Origin: Chiloscyllium plagiosum
Taxonomy: Eukaryota
Length of the DNA stretch: 64,000 nucleotides
Reading direction: 5' to 3'
Assembly (NCBI RefSeq): GCF_004010195.1
Contig: NC_057718.1
Coordinates: forward strand, 91,473,145-91,537,144
This document shows, piece after piece, positions 9,730-58,682 of this stretch. The notes under the pieces are model-generated. The model was not told where the DNA came from and did not search any database. It saw only the letters and a list, made by a program, of their open reading frames with translations. The translations under genes and the position numbers were made by a program. Each line of letters begins with the position of its first letter. Within the stretch, counting starts at the first letter, position 1.

Positions 9730-11710
9730 ATGATTTTATCATTTATTGCAAGGGAAAAGATTTATAAAAGTAGGAATGCTTTGCTAAACTTGTACAGGAC
9801 ACTGGTGAGACCACATCTGGAGTATTGTGCAAGTTTTGGTCTCTTGCTTAAGAAAAATTAAAAATACATTGGAAGCAGTTAAGCAATGGCTTTAGGATTG
9901 GGTAGCAGTATACTATCTTAGGAAATGTAGGACAGTTGGGCCTTTATCCACTGAAGTTTGGAAAAATGAGAATCGATCTAATTGTTTCTAAGAGAACTTG
10001 ATCATGTAGATGCTTCTTGTGGTAAGGACTGAAGCCAGCAATACAATTTAAAAATAACAGGTCATCCATTTAAGATGGAGATGAAGTAAATCATTTTTCT
10101 CAGAGTATGATGGACATTTTTTCAGACAGTGGTAGGTAAATTTTTGAAGCACAAGGGAGTCAAAGGTTAACAGGGTAGGTCAGAAGTGAAGTTGGGTCTC
10201 AATCAGATCAACATAGTAGTGGGAAGTTGCATGTGGAGACTGAAGAGATTGGGGAGACACTGAATGAATACTTTTCGTCAGTATTCAAAGTGAGGACTGC
10301 AGATGCTGGAGATCAGAGCTGAAAAATGTGTTGCTGGAAAAGCATAGCAGGTCAGGCAGCATCAAAGGAGCAGAAGAATTCTTCTTCAAGAGCTTATGCC
10401 CGAAGCGTCGATTCTCCTGCTCCTTTGATGCTGCCTGACCTGCTATGCTTTTCCAGCAACACATTTTTCAGCTCTGATCTCCAGCATCTGCAGTCCTCAC
10501 TTTCTCCTCCTTGGTCTGATAAGGGGCAAGTAACATTCATGCCACACAAATATCAGACTATGACCATCACCAATAAGTCACAATCTAACCACTGCCCCTT
10601 GGCATTCAATGGTGTACCATCAATGAATCCCCCACTCCAACTCCAAAACAACTCCAACCACTCCAATCTCCTCATAGCTACAATTCTCCAGCCTTGGCAA
10701 TACTGTAGTAAATCTCTCTGCACTCTCTCCAGAGCAATTATGTCCTTCCTGTAATGTGGTCAACAAAACTGCACACAATACTCAAGTTGAGGTCTTATAC
10801 GGACTCATAAGTATCTTATATAGTTTCATCATCTCATCCCTACTTTTGCATTCTATACCTATGCCAATGAAGGACAGCATTCCAAATGCAATCTTTGCAA
10901 CCTTATCTACCTGTACTGTTCCCTTTAGGGACCTGTGCACTTGCACACCAAGATCTCTCACTCCATCTACCCCTCTCAGTATATTCCTATTGATTGGGCA
11001 TTCGCTTTTATTGTCTGACCTCCCCAAATGTATTACTTCACACTTGTACACAGATCTTTGAAAGTTGCCACCCAGGTAAATAGTGCGGTGAAGAAGGCAT
11101 ATGGCGTACTGGCTTTTATTGGTAGAGGAATTGAGTTCTGGAGTACTGAGGTCATGTTGCAGTTGTATAAGACTCTGGTGCGTCCGCATCTGGAGTATTG
11201 TGTGCAGTTTTGGTTGCCATACTATAGGAAGGATGTGGAGTCACTGGAACGGGTGCAGAGGAGGTTTACCAGGATGTTGCCATTATGGTAGGAAGATTGT
11301 ATGAGGAAAGGCTGAGGCACTTGCGGTTGTTTTCATTGGGGAAAAGAAGGTTTAGGGGTGACTTGATAGAGGTGTATAAGATGATTAGGGGTTTAGATAG
11401 GGTCGACAGTGAGAATCTTTTTCCACGTATGGAGTCAGCTATTACAAGGGGGCACAGCTTTAAATTAAGGGGGGGTAGGTATAGGACAGATGTTAGGGGT
11501 AGGTTCTTTACTCAGCGAGTTGTGAGTTCATGGAATGCCCTGCCAGTAGCAGTGGTGGACTCTCCCTCATTATGGGCATTTAGGTGGGCTTGGATCGGCG
11601 CAACATCGAGGGCCGAAGGGCCTGTACTGCGCTGTATTCTTCTATGTTCTATGATTTAATTGGGGAGCAGAGCGGGCTCAAAGGGTCAAATGGCCTACTC
11701 TAGTATGGGC
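9730..11710 (+). mobile_element. Old CR1 3' end split by a composite insertion (10214-11654) that ends in a young CR1 3' end
   Basis: LLNLYRTLVRPHLEYCA at 9780-9830; old tail ...aatcagatcaacat resumes at about 11652 as atgatttaattggggagcag; young CR1 at 11044-11654 has nearly open RT frames (VHRSLKVATQV...RHLRLFSLGKRRFRGDLIEVYK). Confidence 0.85.
10288..10510. mobile_element. Penelope-derived palindromic unit, family A
   Basis: aaagtgaggactgcagatgctggagatcagagctg... is a near-perfect inverted repeat of ...cagctctgatctccagcatctgcagtcctcacttt; degenerate hammerhead remnant (gagcttatgcccgaagcgtc) at the centre. Confidence 0.85.
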
Positions 11711-12394
11711 TTTCTAGCACTGTATTTCAGACTACTTTGCTGCAAACAAGATAGTTTTCTTGCTCTGGGAAATAACTCTGTAATCTCAACCCTTCTCTGT
11801 CTCTCACCTCCCCTTTCCTTTCAAAATACATCTGCTATTTATCCTTCTTTACATTTCAAATCAGCCTTTGGTCTTGAAAAGAATGAATGCTTTTACTAAT
11901 ATTCTTTCTGATATATTTTCAAAGCTCCCAAATTCCCATCTTTTGGTATTCTACACATCTTAGCAAATCTATTACATTCAGAAGGGGAATTACTTCACCG
12001 GCCTTTTTTTCTAAGCTTCTCAACATCTTCCATTCCCAATATTTTCCTCAAAACAAGTCTGGCCTCTCTGTCTTTTAGTGGATGACTGACATTGAAGTGC
12101 ATTTAATCCACAACTGACTGCATGGGTTGATTGTCTAAAAAATGTGCTGCTCACCTTTCTTCATGAAGATTTACAAACTATTCTTGGAAGAGCCGCAGCA
12201 GGAGGTAGGCAATGATAATCCCAGGTTTCTATTCCTAACAATAATCAATTCCTCCAAAACCTTTCATTTTGATTTCATCATTTTAACCTCAAATACCAAA
12301 TGCGAAGTTCTCACAGAGTTCTCCATCTCAACGGTCAAAATTAACTGTTAAGCCGAGTCCTACCCCTAAATCTTCTAATTGTCTTCATTACTTG

Positions 12395-12668
12395 CAGAAG
12401 ATACAGAAGCTTCAACACATGCACCAGCAGGTTCAGGAACAGTTCCTTCCTGGCAGTTATTAGACTGATGAATGGACCCTCTAATGGCAAATAATGCTGA
12501 TCTTGCTACAAATAATCTTAGTGCACACCCTGCGCAATGTAACCTGTATGCCTTTGCTCAAATTTTTTTGTCACCCTTTGATCTACATATCCTTGTTTAT
12601 TATATTCTGCCTATACTGCTCGTAAACAAAGATTTTCACTGTACTTAGGTATACATGACAATCAAACA
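12395..12668 (+). mobile_element. Rex-Babar LINE 3' end
   Basis: gcagaagatacagaagcttcaacacatgcaccagcaggttcaggaacag (RRYRS...RFRNS); same family as 49755-50125. Confidence 0.65.
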
Positions 12669-13215
12669 ATCTCTCCCAAGATACTTTTGTCCAATCCTAA
12701 ATTCATGTACAGCCTATTCACTATCAATGACTTCATACTTATTTTGAATCAAGTTCCTAATTCTTATCTTTGCCTTACCCCTCTGCACTTCTGAAATATC
12801 ATTCAGCTCCATACCATGCCTGCCTGTAAGCATATTTCTCTTTATTTCTGTTTCAACCACACAGTCTTCAGCCTGCTTTATCCACAGGCCAATAGGCCTG
12901 TGCCTTTGTGTGGTGATTTCCCTCTGTTGATTCCTTCAAACCCCTCGTCAAACACTATCTCTTTGATCTATTTGTGGTCAGCATTCCTCAACCTTTATTG
13001 TTTGGTGTCAGAAGTCCTATATAATTGATAACTTTTTGAAACCATCTCTTGGAGAATACCGTACAGAATGAATATATTTATGCTTCCATGCAAATATATT
13101 CAGTGATAGTACTATTTTATGGAAAAGTGATTTTAGCAGAGCACTGTTTGTAAATGAAAAATCATGGAACATGCACTTTTACATCTATTGTTGTACGCAA
13201 ACTCATTACTGGAAG

Positions 13216-13734
13216 ATTTGGGATGTTGCAAATGTTCTTCTAAGTGCACTTATTAATTGCTAGCTCTGGACTTGTTCAGAAAAAGCATGTAATCATATCT
13301 CAAGAACTGAAACTAAAACATGTTTGTACCGTGTGCCAGCTGAGAGTATATTCTCTGATGAGATCTTGTGAAACATTACCCTAAATGTAAAGCAAAAAAT
13401 ATGTAAAGGTAATCCAGAAAATGAAGCAATCTCAATCAATTTAAAAAAAAATACAGTAAGTTAATTGACGCCCTTTTGGTGGTGATTCTGACTTGAAATT
13501 ATCTTTTTCTTGCCAATAGTTATCAACTTGCAGTATTTTCTGTGAGATGGAATAAAATATCAAAATTCTACAGTTAGTTATTTCATGGCATGTCAGTTTC
13601 TGTTCAATTTATTAATCATAAATAGAAAGTTTTTACCTATTAAACCTTTTAGCAGTCTACTTTATAAATAACAATCCAGATGTTTCGTATAAGTATATAC
13701 CCAAGCTTCATTTATCTTAATCTCAGAATAATAA
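13216..13734 (+). repeat. Left arm of long inverted repeat
   Basis: Read base by base as the reverse complement of 14605-15134: about 17 substitutions plus one 11-nt indel over 519 bp. Confidence 0.97.
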
Positions 13735-13934
13735 TAATAATAACAACAGGTGCTGCAGTGATAAAAGGGTCTATTTTATCTTGCTGCTTGTGCCATGTTG
13801 TTCAAATTTGTCACAGATTTCAAAAGGAGTTGCTTGAATTAGAGGCTAAATTAATAAGTAACAATTATCACACCCTGCGATATAATTCATAAAAAAAATT
13901 AAACAGCTGGGATGCAGTGCACCTTAATCAGTAC

Positions 13935-14415
13935 AGAGGAATCAAGAAAACAAAACTTTATTGATGCTATTTGCTGTGCATGCTGACTGAAGTTAAGACT
14001 GAAAACTCTTGATTGCACTCATCCATATCCTAAAGATTAGGCTTTTAAGATTTAAGGTTCTCTTTTCATCCATTACGCTGAGCATCTACTTGCCACTCAG
14101 TGCAAAAGCACTGACCAAGTTCACTCTGCTGTTTTTGGCCTGTTAGGTCCTGTACTTAATAGGATGGCAGATGGTCCGAAGAACACCGATTCACCCCCAC
14201 CAGGCAAGCACAAGCAACTTCCATGCAAGATCCTTCACAACAAAGAGACTGATTGCACTTAGAAGCATGTGGCACATACAGGCAAGTATATGTAGCACAG
14301 CCACACCTAGTTAGTTCTAACCGCCCACAACATTCCATCAGCCTTTTATATTTGCACATTCCAACAGTCAAACTTCCCTTCTGGCTACTCATGCCATGCA
14401 ATCAACCTTGAAACA
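13935..14415 (-). other. Candidate 3'-terminal exon
   Basis: Minus strand: ccCTAAC branch (14441-14445), ctctttttttt tract, cacAG acceptor at 14416-14417; AATAAA at 13957-13962 followed by a U/GU-rich tract. Confidence 0.4.
14147..14281 (+). other. Candidate 135-nt internal exon with GC donor
   Basis: Branch-like ctgac at 14111-14115; acceptor ctctgctgtttttggcctgttAG; donor CAG|GCAAGT at 14282; phase-0 frame open (VLYLIGWQMVRRTPIHPHQASTSNFHARSFTTKRLIALRSMWHIQ). Confidence 0.35.
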
Positions 14416-14604
14416 CTGTGAACCAAAAAAAAGAGTGACTGTTAGGGTAACAGCTGCACAATAGACAAATGATAACCACAAACTGATAAATGCTTCCTTT
14501 CATAAAATATTATAATTCCACCTGCAATCTGCCTTGTACAAACTCTAATTACTCAGCCTCTTTGTTACACGACATTAGGCGGTGAGGTTTAGATAAACAT
14601 ATTT

Positions 14605-15134
14605 TTATTATTCTGAGATTAAGTTAAATGAAGCTTGGGTATATACTTATATGAAACATCTGGATTGTTATTTATAAAGTAGACTGCTAAAAGGTTTAAT
14701 AGGTAAAAACTTTCTATTTATGATTAATAAATTGAACAGAAACTGACATACCATGATATAACTAATTGTAGAATTTTGATATTTTATTCCATCTCTCAGA
14801 AAATACTGCAAGTGCACAGCAAGTTGATAACTTTTGGTAAGAATAAGATAATTTCAAGTCAGAATCACCACCAAAAGGGCGTCAATAAACTTACTGTATG
14901 TTTAAAAAAATTGATTGAGATTGCTACATTTTCTGGATTACCTTTACATATTTTTTGCTTTACATTTAGGGTAATGTTTCACAAGATCTCATCAGAGAAT
15001 ATACTCTCAGCTGGCACACGGTACAAACATGTTTTAGTTTCAGTTCTTGAGATATGATTACATGCTTTTTCTGAACAAGTCCAGAGCTAGCAATTAATAA
15101 GTACACTTAGAAGAACATTTGCAACATCCCAAAT
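14605..15134 (-). repeat. Right arm of long inverted repeat
   Basis: Reverse complement of 13216-13734; carries an extra gcaagtgcaca near 14808-14818. Confidence 0.97.
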
Positions 15135-15439
15135 TTGTGCAAACGTCAAATTATGGCCAAATTATGGCTATGTTATTATTTGTGACCAGTTATGTTAAAC
15201 ATATTTAAGACCAAGATTGGGTGCATTCACAATGGATGCAAAATAAATAGGTACACATCAAAAGTGATCTATAATACACCAAGTGAATCACGGAATACCC
15301 ATTTATTGTACCTAGTAAAAACGCAAGTTTATTTTTTCAATAACTCTAAGCAAGTGGTGCAAGTACAGACAGAGTGCAATCTCAAAACACGTTAAAATTC
15401 TCACATTAAAAATCAGAATTTGGCATCTCTGACATTAAC

Positions 15440-16046
15440 TGTATAAGTATTGAATATAATTAAGTATATGGTTAAGGGCCTTACTGAAGAAGGGTAAGGA
15501 GGATAGGGGAGCGTAAAAAGGGAAAATACAAGGAAAGGAGCGGAAAACTGTGAAACATAATAGACAATAAAAAATAAGCTTGGACATGCAATAGAGAGTA
15601 AGCTCAGAATGAAATACATTCAGAGAAGGAAATAATGTAGCGTGAGCAACTTAACCCAGAAACGTAGAAAGGGAACAATTAGCAGTTAACTGAAGACTGT
15701 TATTTTTGTTGGGCAAGATGGTCATTGTATGTGACCCCAAGACCACAGGTCATGAGCATTGCACAATGCTGTCAGCTATGTAGAGGAATGTAAGATGTGG
15801 AGGACAGGTGGTGAAAACAGTTGGCAAAAGCAGAGTAGCCTTGTAAAGGAAACAGAGGGACTGGTGGAAGTTTAAAAACTGCAATCAGTAAATGACAAGC
15901 AAATGATTGGTATAAATATGTTGTTTTGAGTACGAAACCAGAGTCTCTGAGCTAAACATAGAGACACAGTACACGTGGTAGAAGCTTGAATAAATTGGCC
16001 TTGTTGTGATCGACCCAGGTCTGAAGAGTCAAAGATCCACTATAAC
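15440..16046 (+). mobile_element. Possible solo LTR
   Basis: tgt start; gattgg followed by tataaata near 15904-15918; aataaa near 15989; end ...ccactataac; no clear target-site duplication. Confidence 0.35.
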
Positions 16047-16079
16047 TCCCATTGGATGATAGCTAATGCACCATTTTAT

Positions 16080-17110
16080 TTACTGCAAATGATCTTCTTT
16101 AACAGCTCTCCCTTGCAACTCGAACAGTAAGTGTAAAGGCTCATAAACATCTTTGTCACTAAACTCAAGACCATCTTTTCTCTATCCCACCAAGCCAAAG
16201 CTCTTCTAAGGGACCCCTCTGCCTTAACCCCAAATTTTTCAGTTTCTTTTCTGATGCACTCTCCAGGTTCATTTTCTCTCAGAGACCCACATGCTGCTGT
16301 CTTAATCAAATTCCTACAAAACTTCCGCCTGACTTCCCTTCATGAATGTACCAATACTTCCAAATACCCATTTTTCTCAGAACTTTAGATCTGTATCCCT
16401 CCAAATAAGTTTCTGTCCCTGTCACAACATCAAAATACTTACCTTAGTCACAAGTGACATTTTATATGACCATGACTGTAATGAAACACAGTGTGTTTTG
16501 ACAAGGTTGACCATCTCTTCCAGTGGTTCTCCTCAAGCTATGTGGGATTGTGCTCAATTAGTTTAACTTTTATCTAAGCTGTAATGGCTTCTCTTGCAGT
16601 TTCTACATTTCAAGGCCCAAGTGCTTCTCATTTGCCCCTTTGTGACCTCATCTGTAACATATTTGCTGCACATATACAGGGACAATATATAATTTCACTG
16701 CATCACCCAATTCCTCTAATGTGAGTTAATCATCAGACTATTTGTCTGATATCTACTGCTGGATTAGAAGAAATTTCTTTTGAACAAATTTTGGGAAATG
16801 TGAAGAACTTGTGCTTGCTCCTGGCCTTTAACGTGGTTGTCTAACTACTGATTTTATGCCTCACCCGGGTAATTGTGAAATTGAAACAAACTGTTCATAA
16901 TCTCGGTGTTGTATTTGTCCTGTGCCAAGTTTCTGACTCCATCCAATACTCTGTTTTTCTCTGTGTGTGGACCTCCAAGGTCCATATGAGAGATCAACTT
17001 CTGAACCCAAAAGTCAATGTGTTGGTATGCTGCACAGCTTAGAGGGAATATCGTCCATATCCTGATCATCACTAAACCCACCTATTTCCACTTCCATTAC
17101 AAATCAGGGA
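16080..17110 (+). mobile_element. Highly decayed L2-like LINE
   Basis: Pyrimidine-rich sequence resembling L2 ORF2 (catctttgtcactaaactcaagaccatc; gtcacaagtgacattttatatgac). Confidence 0.45.
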
Positions 17111-17659
17111 TCCTTTAACCAAAAACCTTGGGACTAACTGGTTTTTGGAGGAAAGATGCTTCATGTCCATTTGAGTCATTTTGGGAGAAAAATGTACTTA
17201 AACCGAATGGAGCTAAAATAGCTGTTTTCTCAAAGGGCTGATTTGAACTTAGATGCAGTAAGTTCAGTGCTTTTTTAGGGGGGGGGGTTGCTTTTCTAGG
17301 GTCTGCATCCAAAATGACTTTCAGTTTTAGGATACCAAACCTGCAAACTGCTCTTTTTTGCAATTTGGCTAAGTACAGCAATTCAAACATAAACCATTGT
17401 GGAACAACAGTCATCTTTCCAATCTTAGAAATGTCTTTGATATTTGGCCTCTGACAATCTATCTATATGGTCAAACTTTCCTCAATTCCACTTTCTTGTA
17501 ACCTGATTTATTTATTATGTGGTACTTCTTCAGTATCATTGAATGGCTGATGGCACTGGATACTGCAAAAATTACAGGCCCTGATAGCATTTAACAGAAT
17601 GGATGACTTGGGGCCCATTCCCCCCCCACCTCCTTTGTCAAGCTATTCAATACAGTAAC

Positions 17660-18412
17660 AACACTAGCATTGAACTGACATTGTAGGAAATTGCCCAGGT
17701 ATGCCCTGTCCACAAAAAGAATGGCAAATCCATCCTGATCAACGAACACTTTATCAGACTACTCTAGATCACCTAACAAAGTGAAAGAATGGTTGGCTAC
17801 AGCTGTAGCACTTGCTAAAGGACTGAACTGCACATTGATGCTTAGCTTGGGTTCCACCAGGACCACTTAGTTCCAGACCATATTACATGGGATAAAAAAA
17901 ACTGACGTCCGGAAATAAGGTGAGAGTAGCAGCATTTGACTGAATATGGCATTGAGAAGCCCTAGCAAAAGTGTAAACAATGGAAATCAGAGGAAAACTC
18001 TGCACTGGTTGGAGTCATATCGAGCACAAAGGAAGATGGGTGTGGTTGAGTTGGAGCTCAACCACCTTAGTCCAAAGCCATCACTACACAGGACTTCCTC
18101 AGGGTAGTGTCCTTAGTCCAACCATCTGGGAGCACACTTTTCAGGAAGGGTCATTGGACCAGAAACTTTAATTCTGATCTCTCTTCACAGATGCTGCCAC
18201 ACCTGCAGAGCTTTTCCAGCAATTTCTGTTTTTACATCCTTCATTGTCATTGAGTCAAAATCCAGAAATTCACTTCCTGACAGCACAGAGGGGGTCCCTA
18301 CACTGAAATTACGACAGTGGTTCAAGAAGGCAGTCAGCATCTTTCCAGGATGATTAAGGATGGATAATAAGCGTTGGCCTAGCTAGTGATGGCTACACTA
18401 CATGATGAACAC
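17660..18412 (+). mobile_element. CR1 (second lineage) RT fragments with an inserted PLE family-B half unit (about 18140-18232)
   Basis: GLPQGSVLSPTI; tail ggatggataataagcgttggcctagc; insert caggaagggtcattggaccagaaactttaattctgatctctcttcacagatgctgcc. Confidence 0.65.
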
Positions 18413-28431: not shown

Positions 28432-28651
28432 AATAACCGAAAGAACTGCAGGCAAATCAGAAGCAGAAATTGCTGGGTAAGCTCAGCACGTCTGGCAGCA
28501 TCTGTGGAGAGAAATCAGAGTTAATGTTTCAGGTCCAGTGACCCTTCCTCAAAACTAGAAGGGTCACTCGACCCAAAACATTAACTCTAATTGCTCTCCG
28601 CAGATTCTGCCAGACCTGTTGAGCTTGTCCAGCAGTTACTGTTCTTGTTTC
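28432..28651. mobile_element. PLE-derived palindromic unit, family B
   Basis: Inverted arms ...ctcagcacgtctggcagcatctgtggagagaaatcagagttaatg / cattaactctaattgctctccgcagattctgccagacctgttgag; flanked by ccaatctgacctag / ccagtctgacctgg. Confidence 0.8.
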
Positions 28652-31429: not shown

Positions 31430-31641
31430 GAGAAAGTGAGGACTGCAGGTGCTGGAGATCAGAGCTGAAAATGTGTTGCTGGAAAAGTGCAGCAGGTCAG
31501 GCTGCATCCAGGGAGCAGGAGAATCGACGTTTCGGGCATGAGCCCTTCTTCAGGAATGAGGAAAGGGTGCCAAGCAGCTAAGATAAAAGGTAGGGAGGAG
31601 AGACTTGGGGGAGGGGCGTTAGAATTGCGATAGGTGGAAGG
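31430..31641 (-). mobile_element. Penelope-like element 3' end (family A) running into the assembly gap
   Basis: Same terminus ggagaaagtgaggactgcag as the family-A palindromes, extending further into internal sequence. Confidence 0.8.
31522..31557 (-). ncRNA. Minimal hammerhead ribozyme motif (PLE type)
   Basis: Minus strand attc CTGAAGA a GGGC tcat GCCC GAAA c GTC gatt: intact core, perfect 4-bp stem II, palindromic ACGT stem III, GUC cleavage triplet. Confidence 0.75.
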
Positions 31642-32141
31642 NNNNNNNNNNNNNNNNNNNNNNNNNNNNNNNNNNNNNNNNNNNNNNNNNNNNNNNNNNN
31701 NNNNNNNNNNNNNNNNNNNNNNNNNNNNNNNNNNNNNNNNNNNNNNNNNNNNNNNNNNNNNNNNNNNNNNNNNNNNNNNNNNNNNNNNNNNNNNNNNNNN
31801 NNNNNNNNNNNNNNNNNNNNNNNNNNNNNNNNNNNNNNNNNNNNNNNNNNNNNNNNNNNNNNNNNNNNNNNNNNNNNNNNNNNNNNNNNNNNNNNNNNNN
31901 NNNNNNNNNNNNNNNNNNNNNNNNNNNNNNNNNNNNNNNNNNNNNNNNNNNNNNNNNNNNNNNNNNNNNNNNNNNNNNNNNNNNNNNNNNNNNNNNNNNN
32001 NNNNNNNNNNNNNNNNNNNNNNNNNNNNNNNNNNNNNNNNNNNNNNNNNNNNNNNNNNNNNNNNNNNNNNNNNNNNNNNNNNNNNNNNNNNNNNNNNNNN
32101 NNNNNNNNNNNNNNNNNNNNNNNNNNNNNNNNNNNNNNNNN
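31642..32141. other. Assembly gap (500 N)
   Basis: Run of N. Confidence 1.
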
Positions 32142-36458: not shown

Positions 36459-36942
36459 TTGATTAATTTGCCCAACTCTGACACCATTTCTTTCTCCTGT
36501 CATTCTGATTCCTTTCTGGAAGATATTCCTTTCGCAACTGAAAGGTTGAGCTCTCAGACCTAATTCTAAGTCAGCCTTTAGGTTGGTTACTGGGGATGCG
36601 CAACTGCACAGCAGTCAAGGTCTAAGCAGAATTTTAAAACATCCAGTTTGGCAGAAAAGAGGCCTTTGACAGTATTTTCTCCGAGTTCTAAATGAAGTGC
36701 TCATGTGGCTATGACGCTAGGCAAAGCTGTCATAAAGTTAGTAAAAACCATCAAAAGTCAGTGAAGGCAGAACGTCACGAGTGCCTGGTTCTTCACTGTC
36801 CTGATTTACTCCTCCTCTTCCAGTTGCAAGACTCTTGGAACAATCCTTGTTATTTAGTTTATTGCCAATAGTCTTTCCTGAATGCGAGTGGCCTCTTGGT
36901 CATCCACTAGCTGCTCAGCTGTCCCGTTCCATCCATATTATT

Positions 36943-38408
36943 TGTTATGACCAGACCATGAGTGACGTTATTACAGTTTGAGTCAGGATACCCAAAATTG
37001 TTGGGATTTTAAGCGAGGAATAATGGACTGACTCCTCTTTCTTACATTCAACCATTCCCCTTGGTGGGTCACAAGGTTATTTTTAAAAGGAAAACTTCAC
37101 ATGTGGATGCCTTTTTTTCCCCAGACCAAATTAACGTTTTAAAAGGAGCCAATTTAACCAGGCCTTGAGTTAACAAAAGAGTGAGTTTATTAGTTACTAC
37201 ATATGTAAATAATAATACTATGCACATGCACAAATTAGAAATGAAGTATGAATCCAAAAAAGATAAAAGTTAAAAGCTATATGGGTCAGTCTCTGGATTG
37301 GTCATGCAGTGTAGAAACTGGAACATTGATAATTAAGTAGTTGATTAATTGGTGGCTTTGCAGGACAATTCAAATTCTTTTGACAGTGGCTGGCTGGCAT
37401 CATTCACATGGCAATTCCTCTTGTGCCCTATTTCCTTTTGACTGGCATGCTGGCTTTTAGCATTCAGACAAGCGAAACATCTACTTGTAATGCTGGGGTG
37501 ACTAAGTAAGCGTCTTTTGGCTTTGACCTTCACCTTCACAGCACACCAACACAAATATTCAGGGTCAAAAAATGTGGTCCTGGTTGATTACAATCTTATT
37601 GCAAAGCCTCTTTCAAGGATGCCCAACTTGAAGAAGTTTCTTTCTCCAACGCTGATACTCGGTCTAGTACACGTAAGTACTCAGTCCATAGGTGCACATC
37701 AACTGCTCAGCCCACTCATACAGCTTCCATTAGCCACAGACCCACTGGGGATCAACTGACTTCCATTCCCCATTTTTGTGTATTCTTGAAAGGGAAATAT
37801 GCCTCAACTGTTGTTTTTTCTTCTATCATAGTCACAGTCTGGGATAACTCTCAGGAGATTACAGTTCAGTTCGCAGTGCATTTCTTCCTTTTAAATTTGC
37901 ATTCGTTCATGAAATATGGACACCACTGCCAAGCCCAGAATGTAATAAAGGGCTGTTAAGAGTCACCACCTTGCTATGTATCTAGACCAAACCAGGTAAG
38001 GATGGCAGATTTCTTCCTGAAAAGAAGGAAATTAAAGAACCACATGGGTTTTTCCAACTATCAATAGTGATTGTTACATGGTTGCGTTAGGCTAGGTTTT
38101 TATTGCAGATTTTACTGGATTCAAATTTCATCATCTGCTATAGTGAGATATAAACTCTTTCACCAGAATAGGAGTCTGGGATTCTGTATAACTAATCCAG
38201 TGAGATTACCACAACATTATCATTTCTCATTTGAAACTCCCTTGAATTCTGAATCAGATGTGACTTTCCAGGGTTTCTCTATTTCCAGAGAGTCACTGAA
38301 GTTAAATCTGCAGTCACCTTTTGGCTGTCATTTCTTTCAAAAAAAGGCATTTTGTAATTAGAACGTCAATACATTCACATATACTTTGAGCTTCCTCTGT
38401 CATCACGA
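36943..38408 (-). mobile_element. Probable solo LTR with a SINE inserted at 37895-38225
   Basis: tgttatga... left end; tttatt (minus-strand AATAAA) near 37186; ...catcac right end; tRNA-SINE insert. Confidence 0.4.
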
Positions 38409-39110
38409 AAGAGTGAACTGACCGGTGGCATTCAGCTGAAACCTGGCTGCCAAAATCTGCTGGTTCTATGAAACAGACGTCCAAGACAAATCAACAAGTA
38501 ATTATATAGTGCCTGTAACAAACTAAAGCATCCCAAGGAGCTTCACAGGAGTGTTATAAGACAAATAAAAGCCCTTCTCTTCCCTCAGTAGAATCTCTGT
38601 TTGCCTTCTCCACATAAAGCCAGGTCTGAAATTGAAAATTCTGCTGTGTGGCAGATTACGCCCATGCGCTGTGGTTATGTGACACAGCACATAGTGGCTT
38701 GTTAGACTTTTAAAATTAACTTAAAGCTTGAAATGCAATGAAGCTGTGTGAAGTATCTCCTTTTGTCATGCTTGTCTTACAAAACATCAGCTGAGGAACT
38801 GCTACTTGAAAAAGGATTTTCCTCTTATCCTGCATCCCTGCTCAGGTGAAAGAGCCTAGCAATGGCAAAGTATAATCTGTTCCATTATCTTTCCAAACCA
38901 ATTAGGATCTCTGTAATTCAAATGATTTTCCACAAGAACAATTGGAACAGTGAATATGAATGCTCAATATCAATGGTACAAAATGGCACGGTACCAATAG
39001 ATATATCTGAGAAAACTTAACATTTATAAAAAGATCCTTATATGAATAGAGTCAAAAAATGCTGCTGGCGACAAATAGTACTTAACAGCTGCAGCTCTCT
39101 TCTTGCCCAG

Positions 39111-39115
39111 TCTGA
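39111..39115 (+). other. Candidate 5-nt microexon
   Basis: tacttaac...ctctcttctTGCccAG|TCTGA|GTAAGT. Confidence 0.25.
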
Positions 39116-39369
39116 GTAAGTGGATTTTATTGCACAGATCACAAAGCCCAAGCTCTATAATGATGTGAACACAGTTATCGCGAATTCTTATTCCAAATAC
39201 TGCTTTAAGTTTCCTATAAACTTATTGTCTTTGTTGCTTGGAGTATTTTTCACCCAGTAACATCTGCGATATGGTTTCAGCTACTAAATTAAGCATGATG
39301 AATATTGCAGAAAACGTCAACGTAGCATGAAACACATTACCATCGTTCAAAACTCCTACACCTGTCATG

Positions 39370-39840
39370 CTCCTAGATAAGGTGCTAATATGCTAATACA
39401 GTCCTTAGAGGGTTAATCAAAGTAGTCCATCAGCTTCAGCCAGACTCCTCCTACTTCTGGCTGCAGCAAGCAGCCTGTCACATTCCTCATTTCTATCAGT
39501 GAGTTTTAAATTGCCCAGACAAACAAGCAGAACCAATGAGCTAGAAAAGGTCACACCTGGCGTGTGGTCGGCCTGCTCCCTGTGTCCAAAGCCCCACCCA
39601 CAATTCTGCAGGTTTATGCCACTCTGTCTACTTGTCTTTTGTGTTTCCTTCCTCCCCCAGCTGTTCCATTCAAAAAGCCAGGCTCAGCAATCTGCCCTCC
39701 TGAAACTACTTATTAAGCCAAGCTGGCTCAAAAGACCGGCTCAGCACGTGCCACTTCTTATCTATCCTGTTTCAAAATCCAATTGCGTGGTGCTTAAAGA
39801 ACAAAACATAAATGGACTTAGCTCTCATTGGCTCCCTGAA
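39370..39840. promoter_or_regulatory. Candidate enhancer or promoter motif cluster
   Basis: AGATAA 39375, CCAAT 39533, CCCCACCC 39592, CAGCTG 39658, CACGTG 39745, TTATCT 39758 and ATTGG 39827, in locally GC-richer, repeat-free DNA. Confidence 0.35.
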
Positions 39841-40188
39841 GCAATTCAAACAAAAGCATGAGTGACAAAGACATTCTCCAATATGGCAGGTGTTAGTGTC
39901 AGATTCAGCCTCAGGCACACAGGCAAAAGTATTAGCTTTCAGTTAAAGCTCAGACATGCAGAAACAGGGAAGTACCATTAGTACAGCAGTATTGTTAGTG
40001 CAGCTACCTAGTCAGGTGTTAAATCCCAGCACCACTTGTTTTAAAGCACATCACTTCTAATTAGGAGCTGTGATAAGGAATAGCAAAGCTACTTTTTCTC
40101 ACAGAATAAAGAACAAGCTTTATTAATAAAGTGCAGTGAACAAGCTGGCAAGATGAAATCTTTGAGACCAATGTAACAACAGTCTTAC

Positions 40189-40228
40189 CTTGAATAATAA
40201 CTGTAATCAGACCTTTAAATATTTAAAT
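40189..40228 (-). other. Candidate 40-nt noncoding exon
   Basis: Minus strand ttttgtctttttctttctctttcttcAG|atttaaat...attcAAG|GTAAGA; stop codons in all three frames. Confidence 0.55.
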
Positions 40229-41759
40229 CTGAAGAAAGAGAAAGAAAAAGACAAAATACAAAATGGATTGAATACTAACATAACAATTCTGATCATAAAC
40301 ACTACAGAAAATTTTTGGAGGATTTAGACTTGGTGGTTTGGGAACAAAATAAAACCATCTGATTTAAATACTGCTGTTTACAATTGAAGAGTTGTTAATA
40401 TTTGACCACAATTTTCATCAAGAATTCAATCTCTAATGTATATCTTCACATAAGCTCATAATTAAAGTTGTAACACATTTATAGAAGTTTTTATAATTAG
40501 ACGTAACAAAATAATTTAGATTTTAAAATTCCTGCCACATACTCCCAGTCATGAGAGCTGCCATTCTTTTTTTCAGAAGATTAATTCAGAACAAAGCATG
40601 TGAATTAAAATTACTTAATGTACATGTAAACTGATAGTATCAACTTTATATGATGTAATAGGATAGACTTTACTCTGTCTACATAACATTAGTTTTCTAT
40701 TAAGTATTTTCTGAAAAAGATTAACAATCAAAAAGCACAAAAAGTTGGGCAACTCACATCAACATATGTACAGTTACATATCTAACAGCATTGTCTGAAC
40801 TTTCAAAAGGAAACTGTTTTAAAATTTGAATGCTGTACCATATTTCTAACTTGCTGGAGAGAGATAGTTCCGATGCTAGTTTAAAAAAAACTGTCACATT
40901 TGAAAGCATATGAAAATAACACATGCGACTTCCAGATAAACAATTAAACAGGGTACTGTGTTATGAAAAGAAAGTGATAATTAATAATACTTGTCAGTTG
41001 CAAGCCATCTTTCCTCTTGGGAATAGCAGTGGAACACTGCTGTGTAATTTCAGCACTCTCCAATCTGAGCAATTGTGAAGAAGGCTTTTGTAATGCCAGA
41101 GTATAATGATTTCTACTGTGCGCTGTTAAAACTTCATAACAACAACAGTAATTAGGCATTTTAATCAACAGAGGACTGTTTTTCTTTGCTCTTTATGCTC
41201 TATGCTACAAAAAATTATAATTTTGAATCATCTGTTTTTGGTAAAACACATCGGTAGCACCAGAACATCTGAAAATGGATTGGCTTTGTTTTCTACTAGC
41301 TACAGCTTTCATACATACATTATTGATGAAGCACAAATAATTGTAAAAACAAAACTTGAACAACAAGCTGCTATTGTGGTTAAAATGCATTGAAAAGTAA
41401 CGAACCATGATGCTCAATGATGTAGGATTAACCCTTCAGCAATGTATAACACATCACAAATAACCAGCAAAGTGCAACTTTCTTGTTAGCTACTCAATTA
41501 ACTTGTTTATTTGCAACAATTATAATAGTTACAAAACTTTATGTAGGTTTTTCTTTTAAGCTTTTAATAATGATCCCTTAAACTTTCATCAGACATTGTT
41601 TAAAGAAAAGCATATACTAAAACTAAATAGCACTAGTTAAATATAAGGCCAGCTTTAAACAAACATATTTGCTTTAATCTGAAACTATTAGCAAAAGAAT
41701 TTAGCTCTTTTACAGTTCAGTGCTCAAATATTAACTTGCTTCTGATTTAATAAGAAATT

Positions 41760-42072
41760 AATGCTGGATGTGAAACCATTGGTTTTTCAGATGAGATATT
41801 AAGTTGAGATTCAATTTGCTTTCCAGTACTATATGAAGAAGCAAGAATAGCACTCTGTCATAGCCAAATCTTACTCCTCAACTATCAATAAAAACATAAT
41901 ATCTAGTTATTTAATTTCATTTGTTTGAGTGATGTTGCGGTGCACAAATTGTTTGGCACAGTTACTACATTACGATAGTGGCAACACATTAAAAGTATTA
42001 CAATTGGGGTGCAACACTATGAGATATCCTAAGGTTGTGGAAATGTACGATCTCGAAATACAAGTTCTTTGC
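41760..42072 (+). mobile_element. Deu-domain SINE, decayed
   Basis: tttcagatgagatattaa...tgcacaaattg...tacattac...aaaagta...caagttcttt follows the Deu-SINE layout. Confidence 0.6.
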
Positions 42073-44055
42073 CTTGATGTATTTTAGTACAGAGGATACA
42101 CACTTTAAATCACCTCAGTAATTAATACATTAGCAAGTCAACAAAATCCCTTATGTACCATGTGATGCTTGGGAAATTGGGGTTAGGCTGCAAGTTAGTG
42201 AGAATATGTCCATTGACTTGGGTTGTCTGCCTAAACTCAAGTGTTGACATAACAATGAGCAGGTATAACCAATTCTATCACCATTAATAAAAAATCAGTA
42301 ATTGTTCAGTATAATGAAAATATCAATACAGTGTAATGTACTTATCCCATTATACTGGTTTTCCAAGTTGGTTACTGATTCAGACAGAAGTGAGTTCTTC
42401 AGACTTCATATCTTCCAGTTTGTAGAAACCTACACAGCAGTCTGAATTGTTCAACAAATGACAACATAACTCTACCATAATCCATGCTCTAATGATCTGA
42501 ATCATCATATAATGTGTATTCTTAGCAACAATGTTTGACATGTAGAGGTGCCATTATCTCTCTTCCAACTATACATTCAAAACAAGTGACCAAATATTAC
42601 AGATTTTATGATTATCAAACTTGCATTATAAACTACATTTCCTCAGAACACCATGCTCGAGTACCAATTTCATTTTCTAGTTTTTATTTTTTTCAAGAAA
42701 GCTACGTTAAAACTCACTTTTAAGTTTATTGAAAAACAGGAACACAAAATGACTTATCATAAAATTAACTGTAACTTCTCTAATTCTGTAGTGCATAAAT
42801 GCACCAGTTGGTGTGATATTGAGCTACAGAGTACAGACAGATTCTTGATTTGAGCAGTGCTCTGCACTGAAGTGTAAGTCAGTCATTAATGCCAAGCAGG
42901 CTAAAATGGTTTCTAGTCCTGGTGACTGCTGGAATGGTTTGCTTGGATGTCAGGTGAAGACACATTTGAGCTCAGCTGTTGTTAGCTGTTTTGTTAGGCT
43001 GGTGAACTATAAAATGTCCAGATTTTAATAGGATGAAAAATAACTTGAATACGATGACCACCATTTCCAGAATGGAAAAATGGCAATATATTTAAATGAC
43101 TGTTTTATATCTATACTAAATATCAAAAACAAAAGGCAGAAAAGCTTATCATCAATTTACAAAAATACATGAAGGAACACTGCCTGGTTGTACCTAATGA
43201 AATTCATGTTGCTAAGGTTAAAAAAGTCCTTCATTTGTCAAGCTAAATATGTCAGAGCAAGTTAAGTAACCAAGGAGATTTCTACAACAGTTACCCAAAA
43301 AATGGAAATGACTGGGTTGGGAAATGGTAGGATCAGTGCAGCAAAATTAAAAAAAAAAGATTTTTCCTTAGCTAGTAGTCACAGGGGAGACACTGCATCA
43401 TAATTCTCCAGCTAATGTCTAGGCCATAGACTTTTCCATGATGAGTTCAGAGCCGTTCAATGAAGAGCCAAAACTCTACCTGTGAGAATTGAATGAAGTC
43501 AAAGCGCTCACTCCCTTGAGGAGGAATGCTTGAGCCAGGTGTTCACAGTAATTTTAACAAAGCTATGCAAAGTGTTTCAGAATGTGGAATACTTTAAAGC
43601 AGTTCTGTGTAATTATTGCATCGTTCTAATCAGTTTACAAACAGAAAGTTGACAAACAGAAAACATCTGCTGCTTGTTTCTCCCTCCACCCACGCACAAG
43701 TAGCAATGCCAGATAGATTATAACTGAACTGATATGTTCTGGTTTGCAGAAAACAAAGTTATATTTTTATGTCATGTGGTTGAAATGCTAACGAAATGTT
43801 AAAACTTTAAACAGAGCAATGGCTGTATTTACTTCCATAAGCTTTTGTTATCGAGACTGGACATACTCCAATAGCGGTCATTTTATCCTAACCTATCTTG
43901 TAGAAACTGAAGTTAATGCAAACAATTTCCAGCAGGATCTAAAATGTACAGCTGATTCCATCCCATCCACATCCTACAGGGAGGTTTGGAATAACATTAC
44001 TGAATAGGTGCATTACTGCACAGTGATAAGACCTGAGAATACAACCTGTTATTCA

Positions 44056-56730: not shown

Positions 56731-56988
56731 ATTGTTAATGAGGGAATCAGTTTCTAGGGTTGTAGTCTCAAGCACTTCTTTGTTCATTTTATCTTTGTTC
56801 ATTAGATTAATACAGTATAGGGCTCCTCTTTCCGTGCAAACAAATGGCCAGGACTGAGTGTTGCAAACATGCACATTTGATGTTCAGAAATACATTCTGA
56901 GTGGTGTACTAAACAAGGGGAAGCAACCACAATATTCAATGAGGAAAGGCTTATCTGCTATAGCATATTGAGGGGTTGAAAGTCAATA

Positions 56989-57648
56989 GGTCCAGTAGTT
57001 TGAGTATGCAGTCTTTGTTGATAGGTTCCCCGTCTTGTTGTCTGTTCTGTACATACAGCAGGTTGGCTATTGTTCCTCTGGCTAGGGTTTTGTCGATAGA
57101 GGTGAACAGTGTCGTTACATCGAATGAGACCATAGTTTCTTCCTTGTCGATGTGTATATTTCTGATGATGTCCAAAAATTCCTGTCTTGACTGTAGAGAG
57201 CGTCTGGATCCGCTGATCAGGTGTTTCAGTTTCTGTTGTAGTTCTTTAGCCAGTTTGTGTGATGGTGTCCCTGGTAGTGATACGATGGGTCTGAGTGGGA
57301 CATCTGGTTTGTGCACTTCAGGTAGTCCATAGAATCTGGGGGGTGGTGTTGCTTTCAGGTTTCACTGCTGTAGTTCTTTAGCCAGTTTGTGTGATGGTGT
57401 CCCTGGTAGCGATACGATGGGTCTGAGTGGGACGTCTGGTTTGTGCACTTCAGGTAGTCCATAGAATCTGGGGGTGGTGTTGCTTTCAGGTTTCATTGTC
57501 TGTAGATCAAACCTGGTTATCTGTCCATTCGTTTTTTTTCCTCAGTGTGTTGTTTATCCTATTGGTGAGCTGTGGGGTGGGGTCAAATTCCCTCTTTTGA
57601 TAGGTGCTGGTATCTGCAAGTAGTTGTTGCACTTTCTGGATGTACTCT
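56989..57648 (-). mobile_element. Penelope-like element RT, inverted 5' segment with an internal tandem duplication
   Basis: HKPDVPLRPIVSLPGTPSHKLAKEL...MVSFDVTTLFTSI; tandem copies at 57233-57364 and 57365-57495. Confidence 0.92.
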
Positions 57649-58682
57649 GCTGGACATACAGAACAGACAACAAGACGGGGAACCTATCAACAAAGACTGC
57701 ATACTCAAACTACTGGACCTGTGCCTCACAACACACTTCACATTCAACAACCAAATATATGAACAAATCAACGGTACACCTTTGGGCTCACCCATCTCTG
57801 GACTCATTGCAGAAGCTGTAATGCAAAGATTAGAACAAACAGTCTTATCGCAAATGCAACCCAAACTCTGGATCAGATATGTGGATGACGCCTTTGTAAT
57901 CATTAAAACACAGAAATAGAGAACACACACCGGGTCATCAACGCCACACTCACAGGAATCAGATTCACTAGAGAGGAAGAAAAGGACAACCAACTCCCAT
58001 ACCTCGACGTGATGGTACAGAGAACACCGAATGGAGAATTCACCACAAAGGTATACAGGAAAGCCACACACACAGACCAAGTCCTGAACTACGAAAGCAA
58101 CCACCCCAACACACACAAAAGAAGTTGCATCAAGACACTGTTCAAAAGGGCCACAACACACTGCAGTACACCAGAACTGCAAAAAGAGGAAGAAGAACAC
58201 CTATACAATGTATATGCCAAAAACAGACACCCCTGCAATTTCATCAACAGATGCCTAAGGGAATGAGGACATGCCACAACCCAAAGGACTAGCCACGTTA
58301 CCATACATCAAGAACATTTCTGAACTGACAGCCAGACTACTACGATAACTAGGACTAATAACAGCACACAAACCAACAGCCACTCTCAGACAACTACTCA
58401 CCAGGACGAAGGATTCGATACCCAGCATGAGCATATCAACAAACACATCGACCTGGACCCAATATACCGGCCACTGCAGCGGACAGCTGGAACGGACAAC
58501 CGGAAGCGGCAGAGACAAACCACTATAAATGCCGGAGGAAATAACACAGAAGCGCTTCACAGGAGGCTCCCAAGCACTGAGGATGTCACCTAGACAGGGG
58601 ACGAAATGTCTGCAACTCAAATTCCCAGCGCGGCGAACAGAAGCACAACAACGAGCACCCGAGCTACGAATCTTCTCACAAA
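57647..58682 (+). mobile_element. Penelope-like element RT C-terminus and 3' end, GIY-YIG core apparently deleted
   Basis: YEQINGTPLGSPISGLIAEAVMQRLE...WIRYVDDAF; VYRKATHTDQVLNYESNHP. Confidence 0.92.
58574..58613 (+). ncRNA. Minimal hammerhead ribozyme motif at the PLE 3' end
   Basis: gca CTGAGGA t gtcacc tagaca ggggac GAAA t GTC tgc: gca/tgc stem I, stem II with one bulge or mismatch, GUC triplet; stem III shows a CpG-type C>T change. Confidence 0.65.

Follow-up and report, generated by a model that had tools for sequence, protein, structure and literature searches.

Is the long inverted repeat at positions 13216-15134 of this shark DNA an invertible splice switch, a structured piece of pre-mRNA, or the by-product of a local copying event? 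The stretch that was analysed, here called the window, comprises 64,000 nucleotides of the Chiloscyllium plagiosum genome. The original prediction had described a non-transposon repeat whose unique spacer carries exon signals on both strands, and had proposed that flipping the spacer would exchange one kind of exon for another. We consider a simpler reading probable, at roughly two chances in three: a single-locus inverted repeat in the final intron region of RALGAPA2, formed when 0.5 kb was copied backwards, later affected by gene conversion, and functionless.

Geometry and uniqueness of the inverted repeat

Alignment placed the left arm at 13216-13739 (plus strand, 524 bp), the unique spacer at 13740-14599 (860 bp) and the right arm at 14600-15134 (minus strand, 535 bp), the right arm carrying 11 bp more than the left, aligned as one 11-bp gap. 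The arms agreed at 506 of 524 aligned bases (96.6%; 94.6% by BLAST with the gap counted), a resemblance far beyond chance. The repeat had been rightly recognised, with arms given as 519 and 530 bp and about 96% identity that are corrected here, and the 870 bp previously assigned to the spacer give way to 860 bp. No target-site duplication was met at the repeat ends, and the flanks ctggaag / ttgtgca are those described before.

Counting copies of the arm throughout the genome, a check proposed with the original prediction, gave 2 matches, both at this locus. The spacer matched only its own locus (1 match), and a search with the 22-base terminus, tolerating up to 2 mismatches, found both arms and 1 further genomic site; an own-genome DNA search of this kind may overlook diverged copies. 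Rfam at its gathering score gave 0 matches within the window. Among 32 long frames, Pfam recognised only reverse-transcriptase fragments, plus one match below the cutoff, and the one arm frame among those 32 had no match. A literature search, covering sources other than subscription journals, found no paper on this locus.

When each record was searched individually for inverted pairs with separate arms of at least 60 bases at 85% identity and at most 4 kb apart, the window and its 200 kb flanking stretches yielded only two other close pairs, of 73-74 bp. At 56951-58292, reverse-transcriptase fragments occur with the 74-bp inverted pair and a 132-bp tandem; at L007:8104-8922, similar fragments occur with the 73-bp pair, which resembles the one in the window. 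From their appearance, we take the fragments at both places to be Penelope-like. Head-to-head pairs of a short interspersed repeat at 10287-10503 and 28455-28650 form hairpins of 93 bp, their arms separated by 31 and 10 nt, and a scaffold gap, a run of 500 N, lies at about 31640-32140.

Origin and divergence of the arms

Sequencing runs from three organisms, A, B and C, matched part of the stretch in 20 of 24 cases, and four of them (X1, X5, X13 and X18) were compared with positions 11700-14599, that is, the left flank, the left arm and the spacer. Run contigs were built from 31-mers, and the arm in organism B (X13) cannot be phased with them; difference counts from the runs are among the 40 differences listed of 158. 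Contig depth over the arm was 1-2 times single copy, compared with thousands over the neighbouring repeat.

In organism A (X1), positions 13476-13619 were present in two contigs, one matching the left arm and the other the right, the latter carrying seven right-arm letters and the 11-bp insert, and contigs branched at the outer arm end. Two arm versions in these contigs mean that both arms exist in organism A. In organism B (X13), positions 13263-13678 formed a single contig with a depth of 21.8, while its neighbours had depths of 13.2 and 12.4, and 30-base overlaps were found at both breaks; this contig is a collapsed two-copy repeat. That the repeat is an assembly artefact has a negligible probability. 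The window does contain a 500-N gap, the reference lacks 43 bp found in 4 of 4 runs, and among the contigs listed none covers the entire structure; the separate contigs for each arm version in X1 and the doubled depth with branching in X13 nevertheless speak against it.

Organism C differed from both. In X18, one contig ran on the same strand from 12624-13202 through 102 letters into 13788-14559. Of these letters, 34 are an insertion common to the four runs, and a further 57 would belong to the beginning of the spacer, which leaves about 11, against 13 flank bases expected without the arm. A second X18 contig contained the arm at a single-copy depth of 8.85, followed by 2149 further letters that presumably represent the right flank. 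Organism C has the spacer in reference orientation and the right arm only. The left arm, not present in C's contig, is likely the derived copy and the right arm likely the original. The common insertion lies at 13788-13796, where all four runs carry 34 extra letters and a second copy of a 9-mer; the reference, 43 bp shorter, likely reflects a microhomology deletion or an assembly slip. In X5, contig depth reached 18.4 over 13868-14347 and was 5.5-10.5 nearby; its reading as a chromatin peak was rejected, as the library type is not on record.

A single arm in X18 against two arms in X1 and X13 is the gain of a nearby inverted copy that a local inverted duplication by template switching would give, the direction of change being an inference. 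Over 11700-12349, the differences listed include about 10 changes specific to A, 4 specific to B and about 19 specific to C, and C is likely the outgroup because it has the longest branch there. Since the absence of the arm in C is almost exact, which an insertion produces and a random deletion seldom does, a gain in the ancestor of A and B is likelier than a loss in C, a polarity based on one run (about 64% read) of one outgroup species. Because C keeps the middle and one end of the structure, insertion as a transposon is excluded, and because its spacer is unflipped, so is a staggered-break inversion with a duplicated breakpoint, a candidate rejected on the collinearity of X18 from the left flank into the spacer.

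Interpretation as a foldback or TIR DNA transposon, non-autonomous and with long terminal repeats, is extremely unlikely. Long terminal inverted repeats do flank a non-coding middle here, and diverged copies may have been overlooked, but organism C retains the spacer and the right arm and hence offers no empty site, the flanks lack a target-site duplication, and matches to the arm (2), the spacer (1) and the terminus (3) do not make a family. Organism C has already largely refuted this reading, and the view of the repeat as non-transposon, unique DNA is upheld.

According to PMC2583991 and PMC7025897, serial template switching copies a nearby segment in inverted form, with copy gain. Under the preferred reading, 0.5 kb of intron would have been copied in reverse orientation and inserted 0.9 kb from its source in the ancestor of A and B, by two replication or repair template switches of the FoSTeS/MMBIR type, giving the left arm. 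Judged from the reference sequence, overlaps of AT and of an AAT repeat are possible at the junctions. After duplication, the arms would diverge, with short conversion tracts now and then; rare recombination flips between them would be possible and close to neutral.

Long inverted repeats stimulate deletions, and arms of mammalian inverted repeats can stay similar over long times through conversion. The repeat might accordingly predate the split of A, B and C, its arms kept similar by conversion, with the left arm lost in C. We regard this as unlikely, even though with one outgroup a gain and a loss are one event each, and human inversions recur across species (PMC3961182). At C's junction the arm is missing to within about 13 bases on either side and the spacer is untouched, and the arm-to-arm divergence in A corresponds to independent change since about the A/B split.

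Duplication in the ancestor of A and B, the reading that we prefer, would make the repeat a young one and also leaves room for exchange between the arms. The 18 arm mismatches amount to 15 events when four adjacent ones are counted as one micro-inversion, which likely explains these 4 of 18: the 10 bp at 13440-13449 (plus strand) are the reverse complement of their counterpart in the other arm. The arms are identical over 176 bp at 13248-13423 (plus strand), a tract with P = 0.03 under 15 evenly placed events and likely the result of gene conversion. Inside this tract, both reference arms and X1 share T13327 and G13344, positions at which X5, X13 and X18 read C and A. From the tract and these two sites, partial arm-to-arm gene conversion is likely, on thin evidence; the sharing of T13327 and G13344 could also be a bubble collapse in the reference assembly and the X1 contig.

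Among the differences listed, eight single changes in the right arm and four events in the left arm were derived relative to B and C. Their total approximates independent change since the A/B split, and the divergence between A's arms is close to double the length of A's branch, the value predicted if no conversion had occurred. The near-identity of B's arms was reached in 1.9% of simulations at 2.9% divergence, in 12% at 2% and in 44% at 1%; it is therefore improbable at 2.9% and quite possible at 1-2%, which fits B's shorter branch. The doubled-depth X13 contig was dropped as proof of conversion, as contig building removes small bubbles and the B branch is short. An X5 contig showed right-type letters behind the left flank; it was not accepted as proof either, since it could be a merged path.

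A<->T changes made up 8 of the 14 single-base arm differences (P 0.003-0.03 for expected shares of 0.21-0.30). Over 13424-13735, they follow a pattern of left A/right A in the outer half and left T/right T in the inner half, and at all five transitions the left-arm base is G or C. Our best explanation does not account for the A<->T excess.

Host gene and splice signals of the spacer

The gene context of the repeat was built from annotated proteins, and homologues of the neighbouring genes carry the names RALGAPA2 and INSM1. RALGAPA2 is on the minus strand. Its Rap_GAP exons were located at C9:91.74 and 91.71 Mb and a near-terminal exon at L016:8264-8135, and the terminal coding exon (L013:1204-1050, or G000:C9:91464348) falls outside the window, 8.8 kb to its left. 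A 40-nt cassette exon at 40189-40228 (minus strand), which encodes (D)LNI-stop, marks the upstream end of the repeat-bearing intron; this intron measures 48,983 bp, of which positions 1-40188 lie in the window. The repeat is located 25 kb after the cassette exon and 22 kb before the terminal exon. Since coding exons of one isoform are annotated on either side, both arms would fall within one transcript, and it is very likely, judging by this annotation, that a minus-strand RALGAPA2 transcript crosses the repeat.

All 51 residues of the terminal exon (51/51) are identical to Chiloscyllium plagiosum isoforms P0242, P0246 and P0248, and the exon is also present in records of the epaulette, whale and zebra sharks. 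Shark RALGAPA2 has two annotated C-termini, DLNI via the cassette exon and the 51-residue terminal exon when the cassette is skipped. From the strong donor of the cassette exon, we infer that it also splices to the terminal exon. An intronless INSM1 was found on the plus strand 41 kb left of the repeat by a looser exon scan, a stricter scan having missed genes. The otherwise repeat-rich intron region also contains long repeat-free stretches at 36460-44049 (7.6 kb) and 12672-17930 (5.3 kb), which are possibly constrained.

Splice signals were indeed found on both strands of the spacer. On the plus strand, antisense to RALGAPA2, an acceptor before 14147 and a GC donor after 14281 delimit a 135-nt cassette pseudo-exon (14147-14281). 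This exon had been called frame-preserving, and it is open in phase 0, and in phase 0 only; after a flip it would meet a phase-1 donor, and in that host phase it runs into a stop at codon 39. On the minus strand, sense to RALGAPA2, an acceptor-stop-AATAAA pseudo-exon spans 13957-14415, with the acceptor at 14415 and AATAAA at 13962. Following the phase-1 donor, it would add VFQG and then a stop, resembling the natural DLNI end, and if used would be an alternative last exon rather than a knock-out.

The signals do not clearly exceed the background. Acceptors with AATAAA within 500 nt, the minus-strand one of the spacer among them, numbered 28 of the 71 acceptors scoring at least 7.4 in 40 kb of intron. 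Among non-overlapping 860-nt windows, the two-faced pattern was seen in 5, 9 and 19 of 162 at score thresholds of 6.5, 6 and 5; the threshold of 6.5 was chosen so that the spacer passes, and the pattern is then uncommon (3%). When the windows were allowed to overlap, 3 of 144 had the pattern, the spacer itself included. The splice-site matrices are rough approximations with poor discrimination, which scored real acceptors at 12.6, 6.1 and 2.5 and the spacer acceptors at 6.9 and 7.4. Weakness of the sites was rejected as an argument against the pseudo-exons, as real acceptors cover the range 2.5-12.6, and because the matrices discriminate poorly, the argument rests on site density and phase instead.

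Because RALGAPA2 is read from the minus strand, the supposed gene-trap face is already the sense face. It is sense in organism C too, in the absence of the left arm, and annotated shark isoforms splice past it to the conserved terminal exon. The proposed exchange of a read-through exon for a terminator by flipping is therefore not supported on either face, the plus-strand exon stopping at codon 39 and the terminator being present and, in annotated isoforms, bypassed. Spacer orientation was that of the reference in X18 and X5, and contigs of X1 and X13 do not allow phasing. Run contigs of this kind can barely reveal a flipped allele, and none was observed.

We accordingly consider it highly improbable that recombination between the arms flips the spacer and so switches between the two exons. 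The probable conversion indicates that the arms do recombine, and 31-mer contigs cannot phase B across the arm; the geometry permits inversion (PMC2583991), and human inversions between inverted repeats recur in 11 of 16 cases (PMC3961182). Nevertheless, the plus-strand exon has a stop in the host phase, splicing of annotated isoforms bypasses the terminator, between 5 and 19 of 162 random windows show the two-faced pattern, and both C (X18) and X5 have the reference orientation. The longest perfect tract, 176 bp, is shorter than the 300-500 bp that have been estimated for meiosis in humans, although shorter tracts can work at close range, and the arm/spacer ratio of 0.61 compares with values above 16 for strongly recombinogenic repeats (PMC5414712).

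Predicted hairpin, spacer conservation and related systems

Since a RALGAPA2 transcript very likely crosses the locus, it is reasonable to predict that the arms pair in pre-mRNA. The predicted energy of the arm duplex was -818 kcal/mol, and minus-strand pre-mRNA would fold into a stem some 520 bp long and a loop of 860 nt. ADAR editing is expected of long intronic double-stranded stems, and this one would be a substrate like other intronic inverted repeats, to be removed along with the intron. As no annotated exon lies between the arms, back-splicing is without a known substrate.

The stem might alternatively be under selection as an RNA structure, either masking the minus-strand acceptor and AATAAA within its loop or adjusting which C-terminus RalGAP alpha-2 receives, DLNI or the long one. 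Both arms are inside one host intron, the loop contains the sense-strand pseudo-exon, the repeat is retained in two species and the spacer is modestly conserved. We nevertheless find such selection decidedly unlikely: the same spacer is present in organism C, where the left arm is missing, 28 equally good host-strand acceptor-plus-AATAAA sites are found in 40 kb of intron, the closest real exons lie at distances of 22 and 25 kb, and both C-termini are annotated in several sharks.

The spacer differed from organism B at 15 of 812 positions and the flanking contigs at 52 of 1411 (P = 0.014), the flank count including some repeat and arm bases; for organism C, the values were 15 of 772 and 49 of 1229 (P = 0.013), and the two tests are not independent. 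The spacer is about half as divergent as its flanks, and being more conserved than these it suggests that the locus is not simply neutral. Five E-boxes, one of them CAGATGG, were found in the spacer, a number reached by 4.9% of windows. On these sequence features, the spacer may be a candidate enhancer, perhaps of INSM1. A human NEUROG3-bound enhancer located in a RALGAPA2 intron, more than 180 kb from the INSM1 start, is linked to INSM1 (PMC8387919); at that distance, it need not be the same element as the spacer. An enhancer role, if true, would tolerate spacer flipping. We consider it very unlikely that bamboo sharks maintain a flip-flop through conversion, in which orientation or pre-mRNA stem sets the use of an alternative last exon, and with it the C-terminus and 3' UTR of RalGAP alpha-2, and the flipped segment also carries a conserved INSM1 enhancer.

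With functionless duplication as the most likely reading, the locus is useful rather than surprising. It offers a clean, roughly datable case of an inverted repeat arising from non-repeat DNA and beginning to homogenise in a vertebrate that evolves slowly, and C, the one-arm relative, provides an internal control against which hairpin formation, editing and inversion can be judged. HsInv0389 is the FLNA/EMD inversion, and the arms of human inversions are mostly many kilobases long. Human inversions of this type (PMC3961182) resemble our locus in the unique segment between near-identical arms, in conversion and in possible flipping; both orientations are proven there, whereas the arms here measure 0.5 kb at 96.6% identity and one orientation was seen. 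The species-specific intronic long inverted repeats of Wang and Leung (PMC5414712) are likewise long, imperfect, lineage-restricted and located in long introns, while ours is from a shark and its arm/spacer ratio lies far under the strongly recombinogenic range. Similar in mechanism are FoSTeS/MMBIR and serial replication slippage, with gain of a nearby inverted copy and no target-site duplication (PMC2583991), and local two-jump clusters, with inversion of a nearby segment and copy gain (PMC7025897); in contrast to these template-switch duplications, the event here would be a germline one common to two species.

In its predicted long double-stranded intronic stem, the locus is comparable to inverted Alu pairs that are edited by ADAR, but its arms are unique DNA, its loop contains no annotated exon and the stem is a prediction only. 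Inverted Alu pairs are edited by ADAR in that form, and engineered FlEx/COIN gene traps and bacterial invertons carry different signals on their two faces. The latter, invertible segments with two signals, are the model behind the original prediction; in our locus, neither a recombinase nor short recombination sites were seen. If the spacer did flip and alter the last exon of RALGAPA2, it would be a natural vertebrate counterpart of these systems, an invertible RNA-processing switch, and far weightier than a duplicated piece of intron.
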